In this document: positions 4,267 through 38,094 of the stretch, one piece after another
How positions within the stretch are numbered: the stretch's first letter is position 1
How the letters are laid out: each line of letters opens with the position of its first letter
Source of the DNA: a virus
Length of the DNA stretch: 64,000 nucleotides
Reading direction: 5' to 3' (one strand)
IMG/VR virus record: IMGVR_UViG_3300024336_000001
Span: 24,850 to 88,849 of that record
Notes under the pieces: model-generated
The model's input: only the letters and a program-made list of their open reading frames with translations
Database searches by the model: none
What the model was told of the DNA's origin: nothing
Program-made: the position numbers and the translations under genes

Positions 4267-4284
4267 TGTTTGATGCGTCAAACA
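4267..4284. promoter_or_regulatory. 18-bp palindromic site, copy 1 (TGTTTGATGCGTCAAACA)
   Basis: Abuts TATAAT at 4262-4267; differs by one base from the copy at 11078. Confidence 0.7.
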
Positions 4285-4315: not shown

Positions 4316-4825
4316 ATGAAAGAAATAAAAACAGACAACATACAAATTATTCAATATAAGAACGGGAAGCAACATAGTTTAAAAGATGAAATGGTGCGGA
4401 TGTTCCATTTTGAAAAACGAGATTTTAAAAATGCCCTCCGTTATTCCCATGAATACATTGTGGCTTGTCTTGAGATATCAAACAACCCTGAATATGCTGT
4501 AGGTATAAACACCTGGTATTTTCGTGATAATAAGAACGAGCGATTATTTCCAACCTGGAAAAGAGCCTTAATTTCTCAGCCAGTGATACCAGCCTCAATA
4601 ATTCAAAGACGCAGGCTTAACAAATACCTTCAGAACAGAATAAAGGAGCTGAAAGACACCAGTTCTTTAGACACTTTTTATGTCTTTGCTCCTTATAAAA
4701 TTGATATAATGAAAAGAGTCCTTAACACAATTTATTCGGAATATGTTTATTATCGGGATAAAGTGGGTAATACATCTATATTGAGTAGAGATGAGAGGAG
4801 ATATATATGCCACAAAAGAAAATGA
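4316..4825 (+). CDS. Hypothetical protein
   Basis: 169-aa ORF, AAGGGA upstream. Confidence 0.6.
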   Translation: MKEIKTDNIQIIQYKNGKQHSLKDEMVRMFHFEKRDFKNALRYSHEYIVACLEISNNPEYAVGINTWYFRDNKNERLFPTWKRALISQPVIPASIIQRRRLNKYLQNRIKELKDTSSLDTFYVFAPYKIDIMKRVLNTIYSEYVYYRDKVGNTSILSRDERRYICHKRK

Positions 4826-5260
4826 TAGCAACCCCTTTTGAAAAGCTTGCGGAAAAGTTAAGTCAGCGACTGGGCAAAAAAGTAGATTTAAACAAAGGCT
4901 GGGGAATATTTTTGCCCATAGCACTAAAAGCATCCTTGGGGAATTTACCTAAGAATGTTTTTTATTCAGCTACAGAACAAAAACCGTTTGCAGCTCCATT
5001 GCCTCCGAGATATTTAACCACAGCTTTTTCGACCATTTCCGTAAATTAGTCAAACCTAAACACGTCTTTAATCTTTTGAATTCAAAAATTCTTTTAAAAA
5101 TGGTACAGTATAAAGTATATTGACCGTATTGTTTGTATGCTTTATAGGATGCGTCACCAGTATGATTTAATAGCAGTTGAATAATGTGGGAGGGGAGCTT
5201 ATATAAGTCAGTAAATACCTTATACCCGAAATAAGGGGTAGCAAAATAGGGAGCCAGAAG

Positions 5261-6967
5261 ATGAATAAATTAAAAAAGAAAACAAAAGAAAAAGAAACGC
5301 TTCTCTCTGCTAATTTTATCACAAAAGATGGTTTAGAACACAAAGAACTAGACCTTCCTGAAAGTCACCCTGGAAAACTATCCCTCGGAAGAAATGTAAC
5401 CGATACAAATATTATCCCGCATGAAGACAGATTAGATCTTGATGGCGAAGATGTTGCTGGTTTATTCCCAGAGGTAAAAAAAGAAGTATTTGAACCAACG
5501 ACCGGTATTCAAGATAAAGATAAAAATTATATTCTTGAAAACGAAATCACAAATCTAGTTGAGGATGTCCAAAAAACAAAAGAAACCCCACAAATTATCA
5601 ATGCTAACGACCTTGTTTTTACTGTTACCAAAAAAGAACCAGGAGATAGGGTTGAGATTATCCAGGATTACCCGGCTAAAGTTTTTCCAGAGCCTAAAAA
5701 TAAAGCTTTTATTGAAAAAATAGACGAAATATGGAGCGAGACATCTTCAGGGATGTCTTTTCATCATCTCTACACAGAAGACTTTGCGCTAGATGGCCGA
5801 GAAATACACATTAAAGGGCAAAAGGTTCTCAATTTTGGGTCTTGTAGTTATTTGGGCTTAGAGCACCACCCAAAGCTAAAAGAAGGAGCGATAGAGGCAA
5901 TACAGAGATACGGCACTCAATACTCTTCGTCCATTACTTATCTGTCATTAGGTTTATATAAAGAACTGAAAGAAAAATACACAAAAATATTTGGAAGTAA
6001 CGTTGTGTTAGCCCCAACGACAACCTTGGCTCATGCATCTAGCATTCCATTGATAGCTGATGAACACGACGTTTTTTTGTTAGACCAACAAGTTCACAAC
6101 TCTGTACAAATGGGCACTCAATTAGCCGCAGCGCAGGGGACACCTTTTTTTATAATGCCTCACAACAATATCGAGGCTCTTGAAGATAAAATCCAGAAAT
6201 TGAAAAATGAACATAGAAAAATTTGGTATTTTCTTGATGGGGTTTACTCAATGTATGGAGATCTAGCCCCTATTGCCGAGCTAGAAAAGTTGCGAGATAA
6301 ATATGACAATTTATATCTTTATATAGATGATGCTCACGGAACAAGCTGGCGAGGAAAAAATGGGAAAGGTCATGCGTTAAGCTGCCTGAAAAGCTTAAGG
6401 AAGACCATAGTCGCTGTTTCTAACAACAAGGCGTTTGCTGGGGCCGGAGGATCCTTGGTTATAGAAGATCCAGAACTTTATAATGTTATAAGCAATTTTG
6501 GTCAGACAATGATTTTTGGGGGACCAATTCAACCGGCCAACTTAGGAGCATGTTTGGCTTCTGCCGATATTCATTTATCAAAAGAAATTTATGTGCTTCA
6601 AGATAAGCTTAGATCAAAGATTGATCTAAGAAATAGATTGTTTGATAAATATGATATTCCGGTTTTTGGAGATCGCCAAACCCCCATATCCTTTATTTGT
6701 GTGGGATCCCCAAAATCCCTTGGGATCCTTTTTCATAAATTGTTTGAAGATGGCATTTACACTAATTGTGCAGTATATCCGGCTGTATCCAAACAAAAAA
6801 GTGGTCTTAGGACAACAATGACTAATCATCTTACAGATGCGGACATTGAAAAATTTGTTGAGCGAGTTGCCTATCATTTGCCCAAAATTCTTCAAGAAGA
6901 AGGGTCCTCGATAGAAAAAATTAAAAAGAGGTTTAAAATAAAAGAGAGAAACCTTGTAAAGGTTTAA
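5261..6967 (+). CDS. PLP-dependent alpha-oxoamine synthase family enzyme (BioF/KBL/SPT/CqsA-LqsA superfamily) with long N-terminal extension; candidate autoinducer synthase
   Basis: NFGSCSYLGLEHHP, LDQQVHNS, DGVYSMYGD, IDDAHG, SNNKAFAGAGG (Schiff-base Lys ~K390), YPAV...GLR. Confidence 0.88.
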   Translation: MNKLKKKTKEKETLLSANFITKDGLEHKELDLPESHPGKLSLGRNVTDTNIIPHEDRLDLDGEDVAGLFPEVKKEVFEPTTGIQDKDKNYILENEITNLVEDVQKTKETPQIINANDLVFTVTKKEPGDRVEIIQDYPAKVFPEPKNKAFIEKIDEIWSETSSGMSFHHLYTEDFALDGREIHIKGQKVLNFGSCSYLGLEHHPKLKEGAIEAIQRYGTQYSSSITYLSLGLYKELKEKYTKIFGSNVVLAPTTTLAHASSIPLIADEHDVFLLDQQVHNSVQMGTQLAAAQGTPFFIMPHNNIEALEDKIQKLKNEHRKIWYFLDGVYSMYGDLAPIAELEKLRDKYDNLYLYIDDAHGTSWRGKNGKGHALSCLKSLRKTIVAVSNNKAFAGAGGSLVIEDPELYNVISNFGQTMIFGGPIQPANLGACLASADIHLSKEIYVLQDKLRSKIDLRNRLFDKYDIPVFGDRQTPISFICVGSPKSLGILFHKLFEDGIYTNCAVYPAVSKQKSGLRTTMTNHLTDADIEKFVERVAYHLPKILQEEGSSIEKIKKRFKIKERNLVKV

Positions 6968-6969
6968 CC

Positions 6970-9837
6970 TTGGATATATTTTACTGGTCTTCGATAGCTG
7001 CTTTTTTTCTCACATTATTTTTGGCCGTCTTTGTGTATTTTGAGGACAAGCAACGAAGCACCCACAAAGTATTAGGCTTGTTTGTTTTAATCTTGGCCGT
7101 AGGCATCTTTGGTGATTTTTATTACAGAATTCCAATAATTAACTCTTCTTTTATACCCAATATATTGCGGGGCATTTTCGCCATTGTGCCGTTTTCTCCG
7201 GCTTTATGGGTACATTTTATTTTCTTGTTTACAAAAATTAAACCAAAAAAACACGTACTCTCGACTATATATTTAAGTTCATTGGTGTTATCGGTGTTAA
7301 ATGTGCTATTTCCTAAATTTATTTTTAGTGAAGTTTCTTTAACGGCGACACATCTTCTTAAGACAACCCCGTCCATAGGATTTTATTTATTTGCTATATA
7401 TATCTTCGGGGGGGCAACTCTAAGTCTGTATTTTGTTATTAAAGCAAGAAAGCGCAGCGCAGGGCATTTTAGAGAGCAACTAAACTATTATTTGTTTGCA
7501 AACGTTATTATTTTTATAGCTGTAATATTGTATGCAATAGCGGTTGGTTTCTTTCCGGGCTTTCCTCGCCTGGATAATGTGTTTTTAAGTATATATGTTT
7601 TAATTATTGTTTATAGTATTACTAGAAGAGAGCTATTAAACATAAAACTCCTTGTTGGCCGTCTGCTCACATATGGGCTATTAGTAGCGGGGGTCGGCTT
7701 TGTGATGTATATGTCTCGTTTTTCCGTAGACAGTTTCTATTTATCTTCGCTCGTGGCTTTCGTTATCTCTACTTGGCTGGCATCATTTATTTTTATCAAG
7801 GGCAAAAGAAGCTTAATTAATAGAGTATTTGCAGGGTTTTTATTAACGCTATCTGCCGGAATATTTGGCGATTACTTTTATTATACGCCAGTGGTTAACA
7901 ATATTGCTCCAAGAGAATTGTTAAGAGCAGCGTATGTAATAACACCTTTTTCTGCATCTACGTTATTACATTTTATATTCTTATTCACAAAGACTAAGCC
8001 TCCCAAGGGTATAGTCCCATTATTATATACTGGATCTATATTATTGATGGTATTGAACTTAGCGATACCAGCGTTTTATTTTCAATCAGCCACAGTTAAA
8101 ACGTTAGGGGAGTTGAGCACGACAACGACACTGGCTTATCACGTCTTTAGTAGTTATAACCTGATGGCAGTATTGCTTAGTTTTGTGTTTGTAATACGCC
8201 GAAGAAGAAAAAGCAGAGGGAAATTAAGGGCGCAGATGAATTATTATCTTTTTGCTGCGGTTAGTATTATATGTGCAGCACTTTTATATTCTATTGCAAT
8301 GGGAATTTCTCCAAATACTCCAAGATTAGATAATATATTCTTGGTTCTTTATGTTTGTACCATTGCATATAGCATTACTAAAAGTGAACTATTTCAAATT
8401 CAGATTGTTATTAGTCGAACGCTTGCTTATGGGTTAACCTATGCCTCTGTAATATTTATTTTTTTGCTAATGAACCTACATATTAAAGAGCCGAATATAA
8501 AAGTATGGTTTAATCTGTTTTATTGTTTACTGTGTGCATTGGTAGCTCCTAGAGTAAGAGGAAAGCTTCAGACTGGATTAGAAGAGAAATTTGTGTCAGA
8601 CGATTATGAGCCTAATAAGGTTATAGATGAAATAACAAAAGATATTACCGGTGTTTATGAAAGAGAAGGTATTTTTAAAATTTTAATCAAAGCCATAGAA
8701 GCAATTATCAAAACCAAAGATAGTCATTTATTAGTTTTGGAAAAAGGGACTGAAAGAACCAACAATATTTTTCATTTATATGACAAGGATATGATAGAAG
8801 TTGCAAGTATGGACCCAGATAATCCGGTTATCAAATATTTTCATAATAAATATAAGCCAATAAAATTCAGTAAGCTAGATAAGGAAGCGCAGGGCGAACT
8901 AAAAAAATATTATATTAATAGATTTAGCATTCTAATTCCCTTATACTCTCCTCCCAATTTATTTGACGGGCTGCTTATTGTTGGACAAAAAGTATCAGAG
9001 GCCGCTTACACGAATAAAGATATAGGTTTGTTTCAAACCATTATAAATTTTACAAAAGTGATTTTAGATAGACTCCGGCCATATGAGGAAATCAAGCAGG
9101 AGTACGCAGAAGATAGAGAGCGAGTATATGAAGCTAAAATGATGGAAATTCAAGCCAAAAAAAATGAGGACTTCGCTTATACTATTCAAGAGTATAACCA
9201 CGAGATCAGAACCCCTTTAACTATGCTAATTGGAGCTATTCACACCTTACTTTATAAAATTAAAGGACAAAAGCCTATTTCGAACTTAAAAGAAGAGTTA
9301 GATGATATGCTAAAAAATGGAGAGAGGATGAACGATATAGTTGGCACAACATTAAGGCTTACTCCAGGCAGCATTAGTGAAAGAAAGCGGAAAAGAGATC
9401 CCCAAGGAATAAATGAAATTATCCAGCAAGCACTTGATCTATATACGTTTGTACACGAGGTTAAGGTGATTAAGAATTTTAATGAAGAAGAGATATATGT
9501 ATTCGGTGTTAATAATGATATTGAACGCATTTTCATAAATCTAATTCGTAATGCCGATGAAGCAATGCCTAAAGGAGGAAAGCTTCAAATTAAAACCTCC
9601 CTGCAAAATCAAGAAGCTTGCATTGAGATAAAAGACACCGGAATAGGAATCCCGGAAGAAGATCAACAAAAAGTATGGGAAATACATCGCTCAAGACATG
9701 TAACAAAAGGCAGAGGCTTAGGTTTGTCGATAGTTCATAGATTAGTGACTGAGCACCAAGCCAGGATCACTTTAAATAGTATAGAAGGGGAAGGCACAAC
9801 TTTTACTGTGCTTTTTCCGACAGTGGAGGCTATTTAG
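6970..9837 (+). CDS. Membrane sensor histidine kinase: 2x 7TM-type sensor, GAF-like domain, HisKA, HATPase
   Basis: H-box YNHEIRTPL, N-box IFINLIRNADEAM, G1 DTGIGIP, G2 GRGLGLSIV; ~520 hydrophobic N-terminal residues; TTG start 2 nt after synthase stop. Confidence 0.93.
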   Translation: MDIFYWSSIAAFFLTLFLAVFVYFEDKQRSTHKVLGLFVLILAVGIFGDFYYRIPIINSSFIPNILRGIFAIVPFSPALWVHFIFLFTKIKPKKHVLSTIYLSSLVLSVLNVLFPKFIFSEVSLTATHLLKTTPSIGFYLFAIYIFGGATLSLYFVIKARKRSAGHFREQLNYYLFANVIIFIAVILYAIAVGFFPGFPRLDNVFLSIYVLIIVYSITRRELLNIKLLVGRLLTYGLLVAGVGFVMYMSRFSVDSFYLSSLVAFVISTWLASFIFIKGKRSLINRVFAGFLLTLSAGIFGDYFYYTPVVNNIAPRELLRAAYVITPFSASTLLHFIFLFTKTKPPKGIVPLLYTGSILLMVLNLAIPAFYFQSATVKTLGELSTTTTLAYHVFSSYNLMAVLLSFVFVIRRRRKSRGKLRAQMNYYLFAAVSIICAALLYSIAMGISPNTPRLDNIFLVLYVCTIAYSITKSELFQIQIVISRTLAYGLTYASVIFIFLLMNLHIKEPNIKVWFNLFYCLLCALVAPRVRGKLQTGLEEKFVSDDYEPNKVIDEITKDITGVYEREGIFKILIKAIEAIIKTKDSHLLVLEKGTERTNNIFHLYDKDMIEVASMDPDNPVIKYFHNKYKPIKFSKLDKEAQGELKKYYINRFSILIPLYSPPNLFDGLLIVGQKVSEAAYTNKDIGLFQTIINFTKVILDRLRPYEEIKQEYAEDRERVYEAKMMEIQAKKNEDFAYTIQEYNHEIRTPLTMLIGAIHTLLYKIKGQKPISNLKEELDDMLKNGERMNDIVGTTLRLTPGSISERKRKRDPQGINEIIQQALDLYTFVHEVKVIKNFNEEEIYVFGVNNDIERIFINLIRNADEAMPKGGKLQIKTSLQNQEACIEIKDTGIGIPEEDQQKVWEIHRSRHVTKGRGLGLSIVHRLVTEHQARITLNSIEGEGTTFTVLFPTVEAI

Positions 9838-10072
9838 CCTCTGTAAGCGTCTGGGGTTTATTGATATATATAGACACTGGTTTATTTGAAGTAGGTCCAA
9901 ATAAAGCTTGCTTGCTTGATATCATGCTTTGAAAATTATCATCAGTATATTTGTGGCTATAGGGCACATATTTTTTTGCTAAATCGACAAATAGTTCCCC
10001 AGCCCTTTCAAAATTATCAACTATAATATTTTCAGCTAGACTAAAGTTTTCAATTACAATAAGGTTCCACAT
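9830..10072 (-). CDS. Hypothetical protein downstream of the response regulator
   Basis: GGGGA upstream of ATG; 3' end overlaps kinase 3' end. Confidence 0.55.
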   Translation of the reverse strand: MWNLIVIENFSLAENIIVDNFERAGELFVDLAKKYVPYSHKYTDDNFQSMISSKQALFGPTSNKPVSIYINKPQTLTEAK

Positions 10073-10114: not shown

Positions 10115-10612
10115 TTATTTAGATTCGTCTTCTAGTTCTTTGCGTCTGACATAAGATTTTTCTCTTAGATCATCTTTCATGTATTCACCATGCTTTTTGA
10201 TGACAACCTTTTCTAAAACATCTACTAATTCGTCTGGGTTAAATGGTTTTTTAAGATACCCTACTGCACCCCCCACAATGGGGCTAGTAGCTTTAGCCCA
10301 TTTTTTTTGATCTTCGTAAGCACTTAGTATAATAACACTCATTTCTTCATAAAAGCCTTCAGATTTGCGCCACTCCCTGAGCATATCAAGCCCATCCAGG
10401 TCAGGCATTTTTATGTCTAAAATTACACAATCAATTTTATTTGGTCCTATACCAACCCAGGTTTTATGTTTTTTTAATGTTTTCAAGCCTTCTTTTCCGC
10501 CGTTAGCGGTAATGATATTCCATCCTAAACGATCCTCAACAGTATTTTTTATCAAGTTTGTAACGCCCACCTCATCATCAATAGCTAAAATTAAAGGTTT
10601 ACCTTTTTTCAT
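10115..10612 (-). CDS. Single-domain response regulator (receiver only)
   Basis: ILAIDDE, VILDIKMPDLDG (phospho-Asp), ILSAY, YLKKPF; no DNA-binding output domain. Confidence 0.92.
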   Translation of the reverse strand: MKKGKPLILAIDDEVGVTNLIKNTVEDRLGWNIITANGGKEGLKTLKKHKTWVGIGPNKIDCVILDIKMPDLDGLDMLREWRKSEGFYEEMSVIILSAYEDQKKWAKATSPIVGGAVGYLKKPFNPDELVDVLEKVVIKKHGEYMKDDLREKSYVRRKELEDESK

Positions 10613-11039
10613 TTATGCCTCCTTTTTCAAATTTATTGTCCCAATAATCAAGACAATGCCCAAGAACATGATAAGGGCCTAAAAAGAAACCTTTAATTGG
10701 AAAATACACAATTAAAGGAAGATAGATAGCGAAAACAGTAAAAGCCTCTACAAACGGATGAGAGGGCTTTCTTTGACCGGCTTTATACTCTTTTTCAACC
10801 CGTGTTTTTTCGTATTCATTGCCAATGGCGTTTAGATAATAAGCCATATGTTTGTGGAAACTAGCTTGAGGATATGATTTTCTGTTCATAAGAGAATCAC
10901 GTATACAGCGAGCCATGTTTTTGTACCAAGAAACAAAGCCACCTAAAAAACCAATTATCGCTCCGTAAACTATTGACCATAACAATACGATTAAAAAGTA
11001 AATGTAAAATAAGATTTTTTTCATATAATAGCCTTCCAT
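10599..11039 (-). CDS. Membrane protein with two hydrophobic segments, overlapping the response regulator start
   Basis: Hydrophobic stretches at aa ~9-38 and ~97-121; 14-nt overlap containing GGAGG RBS of the regulator. Confidence 0.7.
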   Translation of the reverse strand: MEGYYMKKILFYIYFLIVLLWSIVYGAIIGFLGGFVSWYKNMARCIRDSLMNRKSYPQASFHKHMAYYLNAIGNEYEKTRVEKEYKAGQRKPSHPFVEAFTVFAIYLPLIVYFPIKGFFLGPYHVLGHCLDYWDNKFEKGGINEKR

Positions 11040-11077: not shown

Positions 11078-11095
11078 TGTTTGATGCATCAAACA
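11078..11095. promoter_or_regulatory. 18-bp perfect palindrome, copy 2 (TGTTTGATGCATCAAACA), in a divergent promoter region
   Basis: Perfect inverted repeat between 11039(-) and 11214(+); TATAAT at 11112-11117. Confidence 0.75.
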
Positions 11096-11213: not shown

Positions 11214-11480
11214 ATGAATAATGAATTTGGAATCAGCGATCTTCAAATAAAACTAATGGCAAATAAGCTGGGGTATCCAGGAGGGCTATCTGAGCAGGAA
11301 TTAGCGGATATTAAGGTGGGGCTTATTGGAGAAATATTCAAAAAAAGGGAAGAGCTAGTATACCCTGTTATTAAATATGCCCTTGAGCTAAGGCTTAAGA
11401 AAAATAAAGGTGTAGTTCGTACAAGATGTTGTGAAAAAGATGCTGCGAAAATAAGGTGCTGTGATAAGAATGAAGACTAA
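11214..11480 (+). CDS. Hypothetical protein
   Basis: GAGGGAG RBS. Confidence 0.6.
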   Translation: MNNEFGISDLQIKLMANKLGYPGGLSEQELADIKVGLIGEIFKKREELVYPVIKYALELRLKKNKGVVRTRCCEKDAAKIRCCDKNED

Positions 11481-11787
11481 GTATCTTAAAGATATCCTCA
11501 CAAGGATGTGCAGGCATCCTAAAAAATATCCATTAACAAACAGGTCTTCGGTTACAAATGCCCAAAGACTAGAAATAATTAAGGGGGTTTTCGATGAAAT
11601 GATAGAATGTTTATTAGAGGGGTGTAATTTTGAAATAAAGAATTTTGGGACAATAAAACGGAAAGAAAGACCAGGGAGAACTTATAGGAACCCCAAAACA
11701 GGTGATAAAATTAAAAAGGATCCGGCAACAACATTGAAGTTTAATATAGCAAAAAAGATGAGAGACAGGCTAAATGAGCAATCCTGA
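11470..11787 (+). CDS. HU/IHF-family DNA-binding protein
   Basis: FEIKNFGTIKRKERPGRTYRNPKTGDKI...LKFNIAKKMRDRLN signature. Confidence 0.9.
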   Translation: MKTKYLKDILTRMCRHPKKYPLTNRSSVTNAQRLEIIKGVFDEMIECLLEGCNFEIKNFGTIKRKERPGRTYRNPKTGDKIKKDPATTLKFNIAKKMRDRLNEQS

Positions 11788-12116: not shown

Positions 12117-12146
12117 TTGACAAATACACTAATTATGCATTATTAT
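12117..12146 (+). promoter_or_regulatory. Sigma70-type promoter for the recombinase
   Basis: TTGACA (12117-12122), 18 nt, TATTAT (12141-12146). Confidence 0.55.
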
Positions 12147-12168
12147 GCGAGAAACAAGGAGGTTTAAA

Positions 12169-13239
12169 TTGAATACTGAATTAAAATTACATAATGATAT
12201 AGAAACAAGGATTGAAAAGTTACCTGAACACTATAAAAAGTTTTTTATATGGAAGCAGCCAAACAAATCTACAAGACGACATACGATCAAATCATATTTA
12301 TTGCATTTGAATAAAGTAGAAGATCTATTAGGGAAAAAGTTGATGGAGAAAAAGGGGGCAGCATATGTTTCTGTAACCAAAGATGAGTTGGTTCAACTAA
12401 AAGACACTCTATCACATAAGCTTAACCATAAACCTTCAAGCGTGAATGCTTATTTAGCTTCAATAAAATCTATTTTCAAATATTGGACACAAGAGTTGGA
12501 GATTGTAGAAAAATCCCCTATCCCGCTGGACTTTCAAGAAGAAGAACCATACGCAGAGAAGGAAATGTATATTACTGAAGAACATTTAAGGGAAATAAAT
12601 AATATATTAGATGAGCTGGTTAAGACAGTTACAACTAAAATACCGGCCAGCATGAATGTCACAAGCCTTTTCTTCCATGCTTTACAACGCAAGGCAATTA
12701 TTAGGTTAATGATTGATACAGGGGCTAGAGTTGGGGAAATTGCTGGAATTACTGCAAATGATTTTGACAGATACGAAATTATGATAGACAAGAGAAAGCA
12801 CAAACAATGGCAAGTGAAAATATATAATTCTAAAAAACGAGATGGATCTCCCTTAGCTCGCTGGCTACCTATATCAAAAGAAACAAAAAAAGCAGTGGAT
12901 GAAATGCTTTATCATGCTCAATTAAAAATAAAAAACGGGGAACTGCCTTTATCAACTGCAAACTTTAGTAAAGCCTTTCATAGAAAAAATAGATCTAGGG
13001 CAATTCAAACTTGGATTAACGAGATACAAAAAGACCTTAATAAAATGGGGTACAATATCCCGAAGCTGACACCCCATCATTTTAGACATCTGTTTGCTAC
13101 CAGACTAATTCTGGCAGGCGAAAACGATGCAACCGTACAGAAAATGTTAGGGCAAAAAAACATTCAAAGTATAATCAGGTATGTTAAAGCCAGCAACCAA
13201 ATGGCTGGAGCTGCCAGCTATAGAACCTTTGGTTTTTAA
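12169..13239 (+). CDS. Tyrosine recombinase/integrase
   Basis: N-terminal core-binding-like region; DTGARVGE (R), HHFRH (HxxR), MLGQ, IIRY (Y); AGGAGG RBS favours TTG 12169 over ATG 12145. Confidence 0.92.
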   Translation: MNTELKLHNDIETRIEKLPEHYKKFFIWKQPNKSTRRHTIKSYLLHLNKVEDLLGKKLMEKKGAAYVSVTKDELVQLKDTLSHKLNHKPSSVNAYLASIKSIFKYWTQELEIVEKSPIPLDFQEEEPYAEKEMYITEEHLREINNILDELVKTVTTKIPASMNVTSLFFHALQRKAIIRLMIDTGARVGEIAGITANDFDRYEIMIDKRKHKQWQVKIYNSKKRDGSPLARWLPISKETKKAVDEMLYHAQLKIKNGELPLSTANFSKAFHRKNRSRAIQTWINEIQKDLNKMGYNIPKLTPHHFRHLFATRLILAGENDATVQKMLGQKNIQSIIRYVKASNQMAGAASYRTFGF

Positions 13240-17773: not shown

Positions 17774-17791
17774 CGTTTGATACACCAAACA
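17774..17791. promoter_or_regulatory. 18-bp palindromic site, copy 3 (CGTTTGATACACCAAACA)
   Basis: Lies in a 45-nt intergenic gap; 15/18 identical to copy 2. Confidence 0.6.
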
Positions 17792-27983: not shown

Positions 27984-30900
27984 CTAAATACTCCCTGAAA
28001 CTACGGTGACGGACAAAACATCGGTTGCTCCTGATGTTTGCCTTATGTCCAGATAATTGCCACTATATTGAAGGTCAAAAGGACTACTGCCCGTGCTACT
28101 CAAAACAGCTTCATTCCAATATATACCCTTTCCTGAATAAGAATAGGCAATAATCGCTGAATGCCCATTTGTGCTTAAATTAGCAAAAACAAGCCCTGAT
28201 TCTCTTGAACCATTAAAAGCCTTCAGTGTATACCAAACATTGTTTGATGCGCTTTCAATTCTCTTAGTTGTAAAGTTCCCTCTCCCATATAAAGATAATC
28301 GGCTATCATTTTGATATAAATCTAAAAAACCTTCTTGCGTTAAACACATTTTCTCAGAAATGGCATCTGAGGATCTGGTATAAAATGAAAGATCTCCTGA
28401 TACACCAGAATCTCGCCGCTTCCCTTTAATCATTGCCGACAAATGGTCATCGTCAGACTCGTAATTGCTGGTTGTTGTATGAAATCTTAGCTCTGGCCCT
28501 GCACCATCCGATGTAGATGAATGTGAAAGTACCAGCAAATTAGCACTAGAGTCTTTAATAATACATTTTGTATCAATAACTGTAGTGCCTATCCCTACTT
28601 GACCATCTCCCGTAAACCTTATTGCCTCTGCCCCACCGGGCTTGAAAATTATATGGCCAGTTGAATTCCAGCCTGCTGTAATTGTTAGCTCGTTTGATTG
28701 TCCCACTCTTAAAACATCTATTCCGCTGTGATTAATTCCAAACCTATTCCCAGAGTTGTAATTATTTTCTATTGTTGTTTTATAGGCACTTTCTTCTGTT
28801 CCTAAGACTATTTGGGTTGTTGCATGATATTTACTTATTTCAAGGCCGTTAGTCGCTGCCGGAGCCGTAGTACCAATACCAACTTTCCCATCATTTTTAA
28901 TTACAAATTTTGTTGAGTGGCTGTCACCTGGTGTATAAAACTGGAAGTCGTATGTATTAGAATATGTGTTTGGAATCGCTTTAATCCCCGCCGTAACTGT
29001 TCCTGCCATATTTGACTGAAACTTAATCTCACAAGGATAAACATCCAAATTAGTAGTATTCATATTATGTAACAACAACACAGTTCCAGCCGTGCTATTT
29101 GATTTGTATAGTTCTAATAATTGGCTTGGGGAAGATGTGCCAATCCCAACTCGTCCGCTCGAATTTTCACTCAGTATTTTTCGGCCATCGGTATCACTTG
29201 TAGGCGCACTTCCTTTTAGCCTAAGATCCGCATTGTCATCTAACCAAATTCTATGATTAGCTGTATGGGTGGCTAATCCTAAAGACACTCTCTCTGCATC
29301 AGAACCTAACTCAAGATTTATGAAACCACCACCGTTACCTGTCCCGTGCGCCCAAATGATTCGCTTATCGTCCCCTGTATCCTTTACGTCTAATTTATAA
29401 AGAGGGTCCCCATCATCAAGCCCTATGCCAGTATTCCCACTGCTATTGATAGTTAATCGATGCTCTCCCGCATCACTGTCATAAAAACTTAAAAAACCTC
29501 CGCCTATTGTCCAAGAACTATCAGTTGAAATCATGTTGTATTTTCTGCCGCCGGTCCCGCTCGACCAAACGCCAACCCAGGGAGAAGCTGTCTGGCTAAG
29601 AATTGCTCCAGCCACTTCTAATTTTTGACCTGGGTTAGTTGCTCCTATCCCAACGTTTCCGTCACTTGCTATTCTTATGCGCTCCGCACTATTAACATGA
29701 AACACCATATAATCCACAGGTGTGCCACCTGTAAAATGGTAATAGCCTATCATTCCTGGAGATCCATCTTTATCGCTAAAATGTATTCTATTTCCAATGC
29801 TTGTAGGTGAAGTGGCTGAAGCAAATAAGTTTATTTGCGATGCGTTATATGCCTCAGCGTGTGTACCTTCTATTGTTAGTGTGGATGTATCTCCATAAGA
29901 GCCATATATATGAAGTCTTGTAGAGGGGCTGCTAGTCCCAATCCCAACCTCTCCCGTAGGAGTAACCGCAAGTTTGCTTACCCCGCCTGTTGTTAAATTT
30001 CTTATTTCAAAATTATCACCACTCGCCCCATTAATTCGCATTCCCCAATTAATCGCATCATTTCCTATTCCTATGCCTATGATTCCATTAGCTGTGGTCC
30101 CATTATGTACATAGAGTGGGTACTGATTATCTGTGGCTACTTCAACATGCAGCAACTCCGTTGGCTGATCTGTACCTATTCCAACTCGCCCAGTAGCGTT
30201 TTTTATTGTAACGGCCCGACTCCAAGCTGTTGAATCGTGTCTCCATAAAGCTAAATCTGAGTTTGCTTGTAATTGCCATGCCATTTTTTTATTTGAATCA
30301 GAGTTATAAAACTCTACCCCTGATACGCCTGTCGAAGAGTTTGTGTTTTCTAATGTGAGATAAGAATAATCAGCGTGTTTTATATGAAATATTGTACTAG
30401 GACTAGATATGCCAATCCCCCATTTCCCATCACTAGTTATCCTTGCCGCTTCATTGCTCGTAAGTAACCCATTAAGAGAAAAAATAATAGGGATCGCACT
30501 TTCTGTTGCCAGCACTAAGCCTGATGTTGACGCTTGCGCTGATACAAAACATCGTCCCGTTAAAATTGTGTGTGTAGAGTGCGCTGTTCCTGCCACACCA
30601 ATGTTACAACCGCCTCCGGTATCATTTAATGTTCCCCAATAAACTAATCCAGCACTGTTTATGTTTTCAGCCCTTGCTCTCAAGGAGCTTGCTGTTGATT
30701 TATAGACGTGAAGCTCATAGTCTGGGTTTGTTGTGCCAAGACCGACATTGCCACCATTGTAATAGATTTCACTCCCATTAGCAGACCAGTAGGTATCACT
30801 TGAGGTTCCCACAGGCACTCCATTAATCGTGATGCTATCAGCCTCGATATTTCCAACAACTTCAAGCGGGTGTCCTGGTGAAGTTGTACCAATGCCAACA

Positions 30901-33900
30901 TTTCCATTATTTCTTATATATACTTTAGGCGTTGCAGATGATGCGCTATTTCCTGGGGCATAAAGTGCAAGGAAATCGTAGTTATTTTCCCACCCTGTTT
31001 TAATAACTTTGTTGTAAGCAGCGGTTGGGTTAATGATTGCACTACCATAGTTGAATCCTATGTCACCCCTAACATCAAGCTTAACAACAGGTGATGCTGT
31101 GCCAATACCAACGCTGCCCTCCTCATCTATGGTCATTCTCTTTAAAAGGCCAGCCGAGTGGTTATATGTCCAAAAATCTAAGGCCGTATGGTTATTGGTC
31201 GATGGGTTCAATCTGTATGCGTTTATCCTGGCATAGCCTCCAGCCCAAGTGATTCCCCCCATGCTGCTGGGGTTAGATGTTGTCCCCCCTGACCAGCTAT
31301 AATCGATATTAATCGTGTCATGAACGGCTTCCCCATATTCAAAATAATCTTTTATATGTAATCGAGTAGACGGAGAACCTGTTCCTATACCAACATCACC
31401 TGAAAAATCAATCATAAAGGGAATTTCTGATTTAGATTCGTTTTTTAAATAAAAATTATCATTGCCTGCGTCCATCCCCAATGTATAAGCGCATTGACCA
31501 TTTTGGATCAATAAGATTCGACAAGCTTCCCCGTCTTCAGTAGCTATACGAAGTGGCCCTTGGTTATACCCAACATTAACGGCACTTCCAATATGTAACA
31601 AAGCTTCGGGTGTCGTGTTTCCTATGCCTATATTTCCATCACCATCAACAACAAAATCAAATCTGGCATCATCATTGTTATAAAGAATAAAGCCCAATCC
31701 ATCCACACCCAATTTAAAAGAATCTCTGCCCCCGTCCGTAGACTCTATAAAAAGATAGGTGCTTGAAGAGGAACTTAAGTGTAAAAGACTTTGTGGGTCT
31801 GAGACTCCTATTCCAACGTCTCCGGCATTGTAATAAGCTTTTGGTCCATTAACTGACCAAACATTAGAGGCTGTTGTTAAATTAGTTTCTGCCCCTGCTG
31901 AACTCTTGTAGTATAAAAAACCATCCGAAGCTTTTACATACAGCTTCCCATATCCTGCCGAAACCCCCGGCGGCGTTACCATCTCATCAAATGAAACAGC
32001 TCCCTCTACAGTAAGTTTTTCGTTAATGCTGCTTGTACCAACTCCAAAATTACCGCTCTTAACATAGCTATCTCCACCTGGATTAAAAGCTATTCGAGCA
32101 GTCGCCCCGTCATAAAGATAAAGCTTTATAGCTGAAACGCCATCATACAATGAAACAGCTCCGGCATTGGGAGCAAGATGTAAGTTGCCAGCCACGGTTT
32201 TTATGGTTGGCGTACCCCCGCCAGACAAAGCAATATTTCCCTCAACACCCAATGCTTCACTTGGGATGCTTGTGCCTATCCCGACTCTCCCCTCCCCAGT
32301 TATTCTCATTTTTTCGGTTCCCGTGCGTACACTACGATCATCACTGGTGTAAAAGCGAATATACTTTGTTGTATTATAACTATTCAAACCCCCGCCAATA
32401 AATAAATGGTTTTCGACAGAATTAGAGTCAAAAAACAACCCCAGGTAGCCTTCGGATTCTGCTGCTGAATTATACTGAGAACCAATGATAGCTCCAAATT
32501 TTTGAGTATCATTGTCTTCGTTAGAAGATAATCTTAGCTCATAGTTAACATGAAAAGTGTCCAGTGGGTTTTCTATTCCTATACCCACCTTGCCATCAGT
32601 TCTAAACGTTGCCCAGGTTGAAGCTTTATCGGTAGACCCTATTTTCAATACCGAGTCGGTTCTTCCCCAAATAGCACCTGCACTATGAAATATAATCGTA
32701 GCCGCATTTGCATCAGACCCGACTCCTGCTGCGGTAATGCGTAAAGTAGCTCCTCCTGAAACGACTGGGTTTTGTGTTAGCTTCACGGTTTTGTCATCAC
32801 CGAAAACTTCCAATATTTCATCTGGGCTGGTAGTTCCTATCCCAATTTTTCCAGTTGGATCTACAGTTAAAGCTCGAATTGGAGCTAAGTTAACTCCTGA
32901 GCTTTGGGTTAGAATATTAAAGCGGCTCTCACTTGCCTCAAACCCAAAAACATTTGCATAAGAAGACGTTACAGTTTGAGTTGCGTAGGTAGTTGCATCT
33001 CCTAATGTTCCGTTAAGAAATATAAATTGTTTTGCCCCGGAACCAGAGTAAACCTGAGCAATATTTACCTGCCTGTTTGTTGCGCCGGTTGGTGAATAAC
33101 CCCCAATAAACATATAGTGAACTTGATCGTATCCTTCATTTTTAACCATTATTCGGCCAGTTTTACACAAGATATTCCCGGATACATCAAGCTTTTCTGT
33201 CGGGTTGCTTTCAGCGATACCAACTTTCCCGGTATTAAATCGAAAACCCGTATCCGCAGTAAAATCCAAATACCCATCGTTTAAAGATCCGATATGAATA
33301 GCTGAATCTCTGAATTTAATCGTATTATTACTTGTTATCGTTCCGCCAGCTAAAGGAAGAAACCCTGAAATTTGGTGGGTATGGCTTGTCGCTGTCAAAG
33401 CATTTGTTGATCCTGTATCACAAGTGCTTGGGGTTCCCATAGTTATAGATCCTGAGCTTGTGATAGTAGAAAAATCCATCCCGTTTCCGGCAGAAACACT
33501 CAAAACTCCATCATCCGGGCTTAAAAGAGACTGCCAATCGGACATAGCCGTATTATTGCCAGTTGAATTTATATAGGTTTGGTCTTCGTCTGTCCTTACA
33601 CAGACATCACCTTTTTGTACTGTTAATGCCAGTTGCGCCGTTTCGTTGGCTGCTACATACGTTTCCGTAATAGCCAAAGCCGGTAATACAGAATTTTCAA
33701 GCTTTCCGCTTCCATTAAGGACAGGGATATTTCCTGATCCGGTTCCTGTGTCTTTTATGGCCGCTGTGCCTAATCCCAAAGTGCCTCTAGCTGTGCTAAC
33801 GTTTGCATCATCTAGCAATGTCCTGGCAAAAGAAGATAAGCTCGTTACTGCATAGGTATCATACGCCGTTGTATAAATCATTTTATCTGTATCAGTAACC

Positions 33901-36900
33901 AGATCTGCTATAGAAGCTAGTCCTACATCATAACTTTGGATATCAACATCGATCTCCAAGCCCAAATTATTTCTGGCCGCCTCTGCGCTACTTGCGCCTG
34001 TGCCACCATTAACAATTTCAAGGTCTGCTCCACTCCAGTTATTATTGTTAATTGTATTTAATGTAGACAGGCTTCCAAAGCCCGCCTCAGTTCTTGTTTG
34101 ATTAATCCATTTACTAGAGCCAAAATCATATGCAAGCAATTCATTGTCTGCCGGGGAAGAAATGACCGTATCATCTAAACCGGCTAAGGTTCCTGCTGGC
34201 AAGTCACCCCAAGCAACAACACCCAAGCCGTTCGTTTTTAAAACCTGTTCATCAGAGCCATCAACTGAAGGTAAAACATATGCCCCTATTTTCACGGATC
34301 CATTTACGTGTAATTTTTCTGTTGGGGTATCTATTCCAATTCCTAGTCCGGTGCTGGTCAATTTCATTCTGGTGCTTGTAAGGCTCTGGTCAGTAAAATA
34401 AATATTGATTCCGCCTAAATAGATGTTGTTCGTGTCTGAATAAACAACCGCACCTTTTCCGCTTGCAATTCCTAGCCGCACCTTATTTGCTCCTGAGCCA
34501 GCCATAACCCTAACAAAAGAATCCGCTGCGCTTGTATCGATATCTAATTTTTCACTTGGACCTGTTGTCCCAATCCCAACGTTCCCATCCCAGCTTACAG
34601 TTAATTGTTTTTGATTAGATGTCATTAAACTTAGATTCGTGGCATTTGCATAAGCCGAAGCAGAATAAGCAACCATTCCTCCCATTTTGCTAGACTCTCC
34701 TGCGGATCCCTCTGTTGCTAGTTTCAATAAGAAACCAAGCTCTCTTGTGCCAGAACTACTGCTTGCGCCCCTGTGTCCGATTACAACTGCTTCTGAATAT
34801 GCGCCTGTACTTGTCCCGGTTGATACCTCCATTTTTGGAGTAACCCCAGCAAACATACCCGCACTTCCGTTCATTGTCATTGGGTTACTTACACCAATCC
34901 CAACCTCTCCTGAACTTAATATTGTCATTCGCTCAACTAAATCAGCATAAAGATACGTGCCTGCGTTTTGTACCAAAAAGGCAAGGCGAGGGTTTAAAGG
35001 ACTTGGATTGCTTGCCATTGTAATAAGCCTAAGTTCAGCCGAATACTCTGATATTGAAGCTCCTGTGGTATTACTAATATTTATAGATGTGTATTCATTT
35101 TGAAGTATTGATTGGCTTTTTACCCGTAACCCAATAGTGTCTTTGTCTGTTGAAACATCAAGTTTATAATTTGGATTAGTGTCCATAATCCCGACATTGC
35201 CACCGCTTAATATTCTCATTGCCTCCAACGCAGTAGCCACATCATTCACATAAAACCTTAAAGCATGACTCCCCTTTAACATCTCATTTGCCGGATTAAA
35301 TATCATATACCTTGAGTTTGTTGTAGCCTCTATCTTTAGGTTAGGGTCGTTGGCTTTGATATGCAGTAAAGAATCTGGTGTCGATGTTCCAATGCCCATC
35401 TCTCCTGAGCTTAATATTGTCATCCGTTCTACAATGTCCGCATATTCGTGTGTATATTTATTTTGCAGCAAAAAAGCCAAGCGAGGATTAAAAAAATTAG
35501 GGCTAGACTCTGTGGTAATCAGCCTTAGCTCGCCTGAATATGACGAAGGGTTAGAGCTTGAATTGCTTATATTAATCGCCGTGTAATTTCCCGCTATTCC
35601 GCAGTTGTTTCTTATTCTAAACGCAATGGTGCTAGGCTCTGACATAATATCAAATAAATAATAAGGATCAGCCTTTATCCCAAATTTATTATCGACTCTC
35701 GTTTGATCGTAATTATGCTTAAGCCTATAGACAAAAGCTCCGCCGGAATTGGGCGTTGAGCCAATCTGAAACTCGGCTTTATTACTATCAATAGTCTCAC
35801 TTTTTAATATAAGATTAGGGTTCCCGGTAGCCTGCATTTTAAAATCAATGAATGGCGAACTTCCCCTTAATCTTAAGTTTCCCTCAACATCTACTTTTTG
35901 TTCTGGTGAAGTAACACCAACACCTAAAGTCCCATCTACAGTAAAACCGCTACTATTAAGTTTTGCTCTTTTAATACCTCCTGTCCCAAAAACAATATTT
36001 TGGTTCATATCAGCATCAGTGCTATAACCAGACACATCTATATAAGATTGATATACAGTATCCAACCCTCCGCCAGCAGAAAGACGTAAAAACCCATCAT
36101 TTTGTGCTAATGAATTTTCTCTGTAGCCTCTAACTTCGCCATCAATAACGGTTGTACTTAAAGATGGCCGAGCCATTGCTTCTCCTGTAGAACCTGGTAA
36201 AGCAAGTGAATTTGTATAAATCTGTGGTATGGGCTGTGTTTCTTCTCCAATTAAATTTCTAAAAAAGGGATCATCTTTTGCATTAAGAAATGATCTTTTG
36301 TCCGCAACATTCGTAATATTTGTTGCATCTGTTGTTGCCACACAAATAGGATAACAACGGGTCAAAAAGCCAGTAGTGTTTGAAGCTAAGACCCCTGAAC
36401 CATTGATAAAAACATATGAGGTGGACAACGCAGGCAAGGTTATCGTCTGGTCATTATGTGAATAAAAGTTGGAACCATAAATAACCCTGCCGTTGTTGAC
36501 TGTAAGATTTAAAGTTGGCGGTGCAACTACTGATGGTCTGTAATCCTGCGAAGTAGTAAACGGCTCCGATGTAAAAGAAGCCCGCTCATATTCAATTTTG
36601 TATTCGTGTTCAGATACAAAAAAATTCTGTTTATTTTGTTGAGAAGAGGCACTGTTAATGTGCTTAATTCCTTCTCCTTGAGGAATGCCCGTATTTTTAA
36701 TGGTTATATATAAATATCCATTGTAGTAAATCCAAGCCCACTGCTCATTTAAAATTTCTGCCGAAGTTAATGAAAGCATATTAACCACCGAAGTTAGTGG
36801 TTGTATAAAATACAATCTAGGTGAAATTGTTGGAGCTACAGTTGTTTTGATTCGAAGCCAATATTTTGTAACAATATTTACTGTGTCAGTTGTAAAATCG

Positions 36901-37547: not shown

Positions 37548-37623
37548 ATTAATCCCTCTTTACATAATCTTAGGTTAGTTTATTAAAAAAAACATTTTAG
37601 TATCTGCTAAAGAAAAACTAAGA

Positions 37624-38082
37624 TTAACTAAAGGTTTTATCCTTGATTTCTATGTATCGTATCTTTTTTTCTTCTATCGCTTTTGCGATTTCCGGGTAGA
37701 CTCTTTTGTACGCTCCGGTAGAACTTGAAATAAATCCATTTTGGACCGTATTGTTGTTTGCTGAATCACCAAGAAGCAAGCACCCATCCGTGTTTCCTTT
37801 GTGGTTTCCTATGTGAATTAATATGTATTTAAAATTGGGAACTTTTTTTATGTGCAACATCCCTTTATGAAAATCAGGAAACTTTTTTTTGTATCTATTA
37901 TGAAGTTTTCCTGCTTTTCTAAGCCCTAACTGGTATTTGCCTTCCGGGATCCTGGTTTTCCCGGCCACCTTTTCCTTTCTAAAAGTATCTTCTAGTGTGT
38001 AACACATAAATTCCTCATTAAGAAAAAGCAACCCTAGTGTGCTTTCCCCATTATCTGAATACCTAATTAATTTTAATGACAT
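37624..38082 (-). CDS. DUF5675-like protein, candidate endolysin
   Basis: STLG.L...CYTLED...IPEGKY...ILIHIGN...TDGCLLLG. Confidence 0.75.
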   Translation of the reverse strand: MSLKLIRYSDNGESTLGLLFLNEEFMCYTLEDTFRKEKVAGKTRIPEGKYQLGLRKAGKLHNRYKKKFPDFHKGMLHIKKVPNFKYILIHIGNHKGNTDGCLLLGDSANNNTVQNGFISSSTGAYKRVYPEIAKAIEEKKIRYIEIKDKTFS

Positions 38083-38094
38083 TTGTTTTCCTCC

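Follow-up and report, generated by a model that had tools for sequence, protein, structure and literature searches.

The locus described here raises the question of why a bacteriophage should encode a membrane sensor kinase with its sensing module in duplicate, and what such a receptor might perceive. The stretch of DNA that was analysed, hereafter the window, comprises 64,000 nucleotides (positions 24,850 to 88,849 of the IMG/VR virus record IMGVR_UViG_3300024336_000001), and its + strand holds, at 6970..9837, an open reading frame (ORF) for a sensor histidine kinase of 955 aa, in which two tandem copies of a seven-transmembrane (7TM) module precede a GAF-like region and the kinase core. We propose that it is a functional kinase inherited from bacteria, whose two 7TM bundles, arranged like those of G-protein-coupled receptors (GPCRs), would sense the lipophilic product of an adjacent alpha-oxoamine synthase (AOS); the second unit would be the ancestral signalling bundle, and the first a diverged second site or modulator. 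Taken as a whole, this reading seems to us evenly poised between right and wrong.

The repeat itself is real and far beyond chance. Residues 1-252 align with residues 253-504 without a gap (BLASTP, 104/245 identities or 42%, 63% positives, E 2e-69), with a period of exactly 252 aa and a repeat region at 6970-8481. The original prediction, made from the letters alone, had recognised two tandem repeats of ~252 aa, and every motif that it quoted is indeed present in both halves; its start at 6970 is correct, while its end at 8470 has to be moved to 8481. The DNA of the two halves can be aligned end to end, but the majority of third positions differ and silent sites are saturated, so that the duplication must be old. 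The Pfam comparison that had been suggested as a check also came out as expected: each repeat alone matches HisKA_7TM (PF16927) over profile positions 3-222 of 224, with 47.5 bits for repeat 1 and 34.2 bits for repeat 2 (gathering cut-off 28.6 bits), and this is the sole family matching the membrane part. The output half is that of a class I sensor histidine kinase, with an H-box (NHEIRTPL) in HisKA and the N, G1 and G2 boxes in HATPase_c, the motifs NLIRNADEA, DTGIGI and GRGLGLS being legible in the sequence. The earlier label "GAF-like" for the region in between is reasonable, although it is reached only indirectly: no Pfam GAF model matches the kinase and a PDB sequence search with the region was equally empty, but a profile of aa 530-742, built from the kinase together with the four relatives closest to it, can be aligned with the regions that Pfam annotates as GAF in the homologues P0006, P0011 and P0013 (independent E-values 3e-14 to 3e-7). 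The parts of the gene are as follows.

6970..9837, + strand: sensor histidine kinase, 955 aa, in the order HisKA_7TM twice, GAF-like, HisKA, HATPase_c
6970..7725, + strand: repeat 1, aa 1-252, seven predicted transmembrane (TM) helices and the linker helix TM8 (PF16927, 47.5 bits; AlphaFold2; branch length)
7726..8481, + strand: repeat 2, aa 253-504, seven predicted TM helices and TM8' (PF16927, 34.2 bits; single-module relatives align here)
8482..8550, + strand: TM9', aa ~505-527, unduplicated 17th helix, predicted to bring the chain back to the cytoplasm (AlphaFold2 helix 508-543; hydropathy; distribution of lysine and arginine)
8662..9144, + strand: divergent GAF-like domain, aa ~565-725 (profile match to GAF regions of homologues)
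9196..9360, + strand: HisKA phospho-acceptor domain, aa 743-797, with H-box NHEIRTPL (PF00512, 31.7 bits)
9511..9822, + strand: HATPase_c catalytic domain, aa 848-951, with N, G1 and G2 boxes (PF02518, 81.3 bits)

The predicted structure is consistent with two complete bundles in series. The AlphaFold2 model, which covers aa 1-560 and derives from a 60-sequence alignment, has a mean predicted local distance difference test score (pLDDT) of 85.6, a predicted template modelling score of 0.79 and 17 helices; hydropathy and the distribution of lysine and arginine (K/R) agree with it on 17 TM helices, organised as (7+1) + (7+2). In unit 1 the modelled helices span aa 3-25, 30-52, 62-88, 94-113, 136-162, 166-194, 202-220 and 229-251, the last of them being the linker helix, with a beta-hairpin at aa 119-134; in each unit such a hairpin lies on the outer face between TM4 and TM5. 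Unit 2 consists of seven helices and two more, of which the last (aa 508-543) extends into the cytoplasm. In each unit, K/R residues number 3-8 in loops 1, 3, 5 and 7 and 1-2 in the alternate loops, therefore the positive-inside rule predicts an N-terminus outside and a kinase inside. Single-module relatives have 7+2 helices (9 TM), and in the model the copied block is one of eight helices, a 7TM bundle with one linker helix; since an even number was duplicated, the second bundle keeps the orientation of the first. The earlier claim of two complete 7TM modules is thereby upheld, each unit being a seven-helix bundle predicted with high confidence.

As regards the fold, Foldseek returned nothing from the PDB at E <= 1e-3, the best matches (E 3e-3) being class C GPCR 7TM domains and LYCHOS. 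With VIA-align against 48,161 representative chains, the top 50 rows are all GPCR 7TM domains (Z 13-15.8, rmsd about 4 A, 200-220 residues aligned), the top rows falling mostly onto unit 1 and one onto unit 2. These matches support a GPCR-like arrangement of the modelled bundles, from which neither homology nor a pocket follows.

The two units have not diverged evenly from one another. Identity between them reaches 55-58% in TM6, the third outer loop and TM7 and 48% in TM3, and is lowest (22-35%) in the first outer loop, TM4, the hairpin and TM5, a stretch in which unit 2 also departs most from the single forms. Divergence, which the original prediction had noted in the loops, is thus not confined to them. 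Of 58 columns that are conserved across 171 other units, 32 hold the consensus residue in unit 1 and 35 in unit 2, and conserved residues pair up between the units as D49/D301, H82/H334, N172-Y173/N424-Y425 and R200-D202-N203/R452-D454-N455, so that unit 1 is to be regarded as diverged and not as decaying. Its branch in the maximum-likelihood tree is three-fold longer (1.28 vs 0.41), its juxtamembrane output helix shares four of eight residues with the single forms (seven of eight in repeat 2), and it is 38-41% identical to the module of the single relatives, compared with 52-54% for unit 2. Among 5.8 billion clustered proteins, the closest relatives of the kinase (P0002-P0005, 693-695 aa, 44-45% identity over 73% of the query) are single-module forms that align to aa 253-955, from unit 2 onward. 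By these comparisons repeat 2 corresponds to the one module that the nearest bacterial kinases possess. Single-module HisKA_7TM kinases and phosphatases share with the phage protein the N-terminal sensor domain, followed by GAF and either HisKA/HATPase_c or SpoIIE, whereas the phage kinase has an extra N-terminal unit of 7TM and TM8, and 17 TM helices instead of 9.

What the receptor may sense is suggested by the gene that precedes it. The kinase gene starts with a TTG codon 2 nt past the TAA stop of the synthase gene, with AAAGG 6 nt upstream of the TTG, a spacing that suggests translational coupling. Both belong to a cassette in which an 80-aa ORF, the AOS gene and the kinase gene lie on the + strand, and genes for a membrane protein and a receiver and another 80-aa ORF converge on them from the - strand. 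This block and its surroundings contain:

4268..4283, no strand: 16-bp palindrome GTTTGATGCGTCAAAC, operator-like, upstream of the + strand cassette genes (DNA pattern search)
4807..5049, + strand: 80-aa ORF upstream of the synthase, conserved partner gene (48.6% identity by tblastn to the ORF directly upstream of the synthase in the bacterial contig L003; no Pfam match)
5261..6967, + strand: PLP (pyridoxal phosphate) enzyme of the AOS family, 568 aa, with an N-terminal extension of ~175 aa; candidate signal or lipid synthase (Pfam Aminotran_1_2)
9830..10072, - strand: ORF of 80 aa that follows the receiver gene (no homologue found)
10115..10612, - strand: stand-alone response regulator of 165 aa, a receiver domain followed by a short charged tail and lacking a DNA-binding domain (PF00072, 74.1 bits)
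10599..11039, - strand: small membrane protein, 146 aa, whose gene overlaps the receiver gene; conserved partner (homologue in L003; no family match)
11079..11094, no strand: perfect palindrome GTTTGATGCATCAAAC upstream of the - strand operon, beside a promoter-like site (DNA pattern search)
12145..13239, + strand: tyrosine integrase (PHROG 1 integrase, E 6e-34)

The upstream gene encodes a member of the alpha-oxoamine synthase superfamily (PF00155, Aminotran_1_2, 87.9 bits), in which D356, D357, A358, H359, G360 (DDAHG) and the PLP-lysine K390 are invariant in the synthase alignment. Its best model, PRK07505 (NCBIfam NF005697), gives 272.3 bits, under the cut-off of 342; the CqsA/LqsA model PRK07179 (NCBIfam NF005526) gives 88.5 bits against an equivalog cut-off of 428. 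The motifs of kinase, receiver and synthase are all intact.

In the 41 bacterial genomes first searched, the synthase subfamily was found in three, and in all three it stands beside a HisKA_7TM sensor: directly upstream of a 7TM-GAF-SpoIIE phosphatase in G027, directly upstream of a 7TM-GAF protein in G018, and at most 4.3 kb from such a sensor in G001. BioF/KBL-like synthases that share 25-28% identity with the phage enzyme, and likewise stay below the CqsA/LqsA cut-off of 428 (183-229 bits), belong to paralogous modules with the same order in three more genomes, namely synthase, kinase and receiver in G021, synthase, kinase and a converging REC-SpoIIE gene (REC, receiver) in G009, and synthase and kinase in G026. 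The 101 genomes related to G001 contain 104 AOS-family matches, and 11 of these, spread over nine genomes, have a HisKA_7TM sensor within 5 kb, in most cases as the next gene downstream on that strand, against a chance expectation of about 0.6-3.7 (binomial P 4e-11 to 1e-3 by the sensor density assumed). The linked AOS copies have open frames of 465-600 aa, as opposed to 370-400 aa in the unlinked ones; the difference is exemplified by aa 1-175 of the phage synthase (window 5261-5785), a long charged extension, probably disordered, that occurs in sensor-linked synthases and is absent from housekeeping BioF/KBL copies. The sensors concerned have histidine kinase or PP2C outputs, and since the output varies while 7TM-GAF is constant, the linkage points to the sensor module. 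By analogy with the Cqs and Lqs systems it supports the sensing of a lipophilic AOS product; the hydrophobic ligand that had been put forward earlier from the idea of intramembrane pockets is therefore plausible, on the grounds of the repeated adjacency of AOS genes to HisKA_7TM sensors.

Two further observations concern these bacterial loci. Several of them (L003, L026 and L008; G043:C23 and G028:C1) encode two separate HisKA_7TM-type sensor proteins with different outputs, histidine kinase and SpoIIE/PP2C, or with REC-SpoIIE as regulator, and in such genomes one synthase seems to feed more than one sensor. In G018, a 462-aa ORF resembling carotenoid-cleavage oxygenases (RPE65-type), as judged from reading its sequence alone, lies directly upstream of the synthase (L027 3443-4831, - strand).

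The relatives of the cassette also indicate where it came from. P0005 is encoded on a 17.9-kb contig (L003) of a 1.6-Mb metagenome-assembled genome (G001), together with counterparts of the phage partner genes: a membrane protein (30% over 131 aa), the receiver (56%), the kinase (45%), the synthase (58%) and the small upstream ORF (49%). On this contig the membrane-protein gene precedes the receiver gene, the synthase (P0276) has the same N-terminal extension, and the kinase is of the single-7TM form; two 7TM-SpoIIE phosphatases are present as well, whose 7TM regions gave no match to the repeat profile. Just past the stop of the single-7TM kinase, at L003 4790-4939 (- strand), lies a 53-aa remnant 49% identical to the synthase C-terminus (aa 514-566), which suggests an earlier synthase-kinase adjacency that has since been rearranged. 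Proteins of G027 and G018, which belong to the same set of relatives of G001, are identical to NCBI entries named Candidatus Margulisiibacteriota, and the closest homologue of the synthase was sampled by Tara in surface water; for these reasons the cassette probably derives from marine Margulisbacteria, which are probably also the host group.

It can next be asked whether the doubling is peculiar to the phage. A HMMER search with a profile of the two units yielded 632 representative proteins (E <= 1e-3), and about 20 of the best 150 have two matched stretches; among 164 retrieved proteins, 21 have two units, corresponding to 19 distinct proteins besides the phage kinase. The doubled architecture is thus already in public protein sets, Pfam itself marking two HisKA_7TM stretches in P0006 (942 aa) and P0009 (1411 aa), and our literature search found no paper on tandem HisKA_7TM modules. 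The other doubles (P0006, P0144, P0154, P0192, P0233; 776-1000 aa) resemble the phage kinase in having two units before a GAF-histidine kinase or other output, and their 20-45 aa between units leave room for one TM helix; they differ in being only 18-24% identical to it, in lying far from it in a tree of 173 units, and in that none is known to be phage-borne. Reciprocal best hits make sibling units mutually nearest in three proteins, the phage kinase (42%), P0154 (63%) and P0192 (60%), which were thus duplicated internally on separate occasions; in the other doubles the paired units share 23-35% identity, and each is closer to some single-unit protein.

The double form is not the norm in the presumed host group, as just two doubled genes are among the 55 unit matches in the 101 related genomes. 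One, in G073, encodes a 966-aa protein that belongs to an unrelated clade. The other is G024:C563; if a single in-frame TAG is read through, its product runs colinear with the phage kinase over aa 1-308 (score 594, with one gap of 2 aa), from unit 1 through the linker helix to residue 57 of unit 2. Identity of its junction to the phage junction is 48.6%, compared with 20-26% to TM8 of single forms or of unit 2, and its unit-2 fragment is 52% identical to phage unit 2 and 43% to unit 1. The gene lies in a chromosomal context (mnmG, prmC, prfA, rpmE). Because it shares the colinear doubled structure and the junction in this context, the doubling must predate phage capture: bacteria already had the same duplication, and the phage inherited a doubled gene, as opposed to having invented it or evolved it as an adaptation. 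As to the contig itself (L028, 11669-12775), the TAG follows unit 1 and the last ~180 contig bases are unrelated, as in a pseudogene or an assembly chimera. In the maximum-likelihood tree, unit 1, unit 2 and the single forms make up a trichotomy within a well-supported clade (98/95); the grouping of unit 2 with the singles is that of the tree itself (78/22 support), and the approximately unbiased (AU) test gives p 0.38 for the two repeats together and 0.31 for unit 1 with the singles. The tree would fit both a loss of unit 1 by the single forms and its original absence there. The origin of repeat 1 by fusion with the 7TM of a synthase-adjacent PP2C-type sensor was also considered and rejected, the G027 and G018 modules lying in a different clade (100/99).

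That the cassette belongs to a phage is clear from its surroundings. The window is part of a record of 88,849 bp with direct terminal repeats, rated 100% complete, and PHROG scans of the window identified a tape measure protein, a baseplate-like protein, two helicases and the tyrosine integrase; structural and integration genes on a terminally repeated genome characterise a tailed temperate phage, in which the kinase sits in an accessory block beside the integrase. The palindrome GTTTGATGCRTCAAAC occurs three times in the window, at 4268, at 11079 and with a weaker match at 17775-17790, where 0.08 occurrences would be expected by chance; it precedes both cassette operons and recurs near phage replication genes, and the copy at 11079 abuts a - strand promoter-like site (GTGATA-17-TATAAT with TG). 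The cassette is near-identical in seawater and other marine metagenomes of at least 8 studies. One independent seawater DNA contig spans both repeats with 0 differences, hence the doubling is unlikely to be an assembly artefact; no deletion joint, and none pointing to a single-repeat variant, was seen in the metagenome run contigs compared. Two RNA libraries from seawater yielded contigs with 100% identity to stretches of the synthase, kinase, receiver and membrane-protein genes and to the junction of synthase and kinase, which hints at expression but does not prove it.

Similar viral loci were sought in several ways. Pattern-based scans of IMG/VR, run with the kinase sequence and with alignments of kinases and of synthases, brought up no related viral locus, and a metagenome contig scan gave generic kinase-core matches only. 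In GenBank phage records, tblastn with the kinase reached no further than the catalytic core (aa ~670-950), without a match to the 7TM region, and the synthase matched only bioF/kbl-type genes (22-29% identity). No phage record with a HisKA_7TM kinase or with the synthase family of this cassette was thus found in the IMG/VR and GenBank phage scans. Two other features of the window may be mentioned, a gene for a HU/IHF-type DNA-binding protein at 11461-11787 (PF00216, 67.8 bits), between cassette and integrase, and, in the phage's structural region (27984-47363, - strand), very large ORFs encoding 3187, 1855 and 1234 aa, the last with weak baseplate-wedge similarity.

The repeat and its domains, the predicted topology, the phage surroundings, the origin in bacteria and the linkage of synthase and sensor genes we regard as shown; from these elements we infer a ligand, a direction of signalling and a division of labour between the bundles. 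The doubling took place in bacteria, in Margulisbacteria-like lineages, before a marine temperate phage captured the kinase along with its partner genes as an intact class I sensor with two 7TM bundles in series, N-terminus outside and kinase inside. The adjacent AOS would make a lipophilic product of the amino-ketone type that partitions into the membrane and may be sensed inside one or both bundles, which would switch kinase or phosphatase activity toward the lone receiver, as in CqsA/CqsS and LqsA/LqsS/LqsR. Repeat 2 would drive the output, formed by GAF, the dimerisation and phosphotransfer domain (DHp) and the catalytic domain (CA), via the conserved YSITKSELFQIQ juxtamembrane helix. Repeat 1, an older copy evolving three-fold faster that keeps the conserved polar and aromatic motifs of the family, could be a second ligand site or a modulatory bundle packed on repeat 2. 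Several facts weigh against this account. No ligand has been described for any HisKA_7TM domain (PMC5847659), the synthase is no CqsA/LqsA orthologue (88.5 vs 428 bits), and its family is large and, in other phyla, also fused to GNAT/FemAB-like domains, so that the product may be a structural lipid. The GPCR-like Z of 13-16 is only slightly over the level that helical bundles reach by arrangement alone. The bacterial doubled gene has an in-frame TAG and ends 57 aa into unit 2, and no intact bacterial orthologue was seen among the genomes searched; the AU test rejects no alternative order of events (p 0.31-0.38). Host assignment rests on gene similarity, and the RNA-library matches, being contigs only, do not prove transcription.

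It may be argued, although we consider it rather unlikely, that the system serves membrane homeostasis: the synthase would make a structural amino- or sphingo-type lipid, the 7TM bundles would monitor lipid composition or fluidity, the phage would retune the host envelope in lysogeny, and the second bundle would only enlarge the lipid-exposed sensing surface. The best family of the synthase is PRK07505/BioF2-like and serine-palmitoyltransferase models outscore the CqsA model on it (164 vs 88 bits); its relatives are often fused to acyltransferase-like domains, the linked bacterial sensors often have PP2C phosphatase outputs typical of stress pathways, and a carotenoid-oxygenase-like gene lies upstream of the synthase in G018. 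However, the compact synthase-sensor-receiver operon has the layout of the Cqs/Lqs autoinducer systems, the long N-terminal extension is specific to the sensor-linked synthases (open frames of 465-600 vs 370-400 aa), and the cassette is devoid of other lipid-biosynthesis genes. An unlikely proposition, directed at the first bundle, is that only repeat 2 binds ligand and that repeat 1 is a relic of the duplication kept as an anchor, a dimerisation or scaffold element, or a decoy pairing with host 7TM sensors. Its long branch (1.28 vs 0.41) would be expected then, and its diverged juxtamembrane helix (4/8 vs 7/8) runs only into the linker helix; moreover, the sole bacterial counterpart seen is broken and the closest bacterial kinases work with one module. 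Yet repeat 1 keeps 32 of 58 consensus residues (35 in repeat 2), including GIFGD, HFIFLFT, Q-NYY, PRLDN and YSIT, outscores repeat 2 on the Pfam model, has a pLDDT mostly > 85, and shows no variation or deletion across independent seawater samples. These two accounts dispute, respectively, what is sensed and what unit 1 does; both overlap with the kinase sensing a lipophilic AOS product, and they are not strictly exclusive of it.

That the cassette is passenger DNA, picked up by imprecise excision and with no role for the phage, appears to us extremely improbable. It does adjoin the integrase, where such cargo accumulates, and its nearest relatives are bacterial chromosomal genes, but all five conserved genes are intact, and the 30-58% protein identity to the bacterial copies implies an old capture with frames maintained since. 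Both operons are preceded by the same palindrome, found again near phage replication genes, the cassette recurs unchanged in many seawater data sets, and it is matched by RNA-library contigs. At the other extreme, the kinase sensing a lipophilic AOS product could be part of an elaborate scheme, close to the integration of a self signal with a host or competitor signal imagined in the original prediction. A phage of uncultivated marine Margulisbacteria would run its own lipid-signal circuit, with synthase, receptor and regulator under a shared palindromic operator; the two bundles would bind phage-made and host-made AOS-type products, and the kinase would compare them, or detect their coincidence, as a measure of lysogen and host density to steer lysis-lysogeny or host physiology. 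We hold this to be improbable; if true, such a two-product comparing circuit would give the orphan HisKA_7TM domain its first class of ligand.

HisKA_7TM is widespread as the sensor domain of kinases in bacteria and archaea, and for this domain the repeated operon link with AOS genes offers a concrete and testable ligand hypothesis. The doubled module can be seen as a topologically legal expansion of polytopic sensors, by duplication of an even number of helices, which has happened on several independent occasions. Of greater interest than the doubling is the combination of this ligand hypothesis for an orphan domain with a phage-carried synthase-sensor-regulator cassette from an uncultivated marine phylum, Margulisbacteria being a host phylum without a cultured phage-host system. 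If the proposal is correct, a phage with synthase, sensor and regulator would take phage communication past peptide systems (arbitrium, agr) and receptor-only systems, to lipid chemistry of the Cqs/Lqs kind.

The comparison with known systems places the cassette as follows. The modelled kinase units have the same helix number, order and orientation as the 7TM bundles of eukaryotic GPCRs; these differ from them, however, by a sequence identity of only 5-12%, with no evidence of shared descent, and the output of the phage protein is a histidine kinase. In CqsA/CqsS of Vibrio and LqsA-LqsR-HdeD-LqsS of Legionella, as in the phage, the gene of an AOS-family enzyme lies beside that of a polytopic membrane histidine kinase; the enzyme makes a hydrophobic alpha-hydroxyketone that is sensed by the kinase (PMC3376566), within its membrane domain. 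The likeness to the Legionella cluster extends to its small membrane-protein gene and to the receiver-only regulator LqsR, which has no known output (PMC3376566). CqsS and LqsS are six-TM sensors, whereas the phage sensor is a doubled HisKA_7TM followed by a GAF-like domain, with seven predicted helices per unit and PF16927 as its one family match; unlike the enzymes of those systems, the phage synthase scores far below the CqsA/LqsA model, and the cassette is phage-carried. A second parallel is provided by the Clostridioides difficile phage phiCDHM1, which carries agrB, agrD and agrC (PMC3901668), and is thus likewise a temperate phage with host-derived genes for signal production and a membrane histidine kinase. 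That system is one of a peptide (AgrD) and an AgrC-type kinase, whereas the present cassette has an AOS enzyme, a doubled 7TM sensor and a receiver gene.

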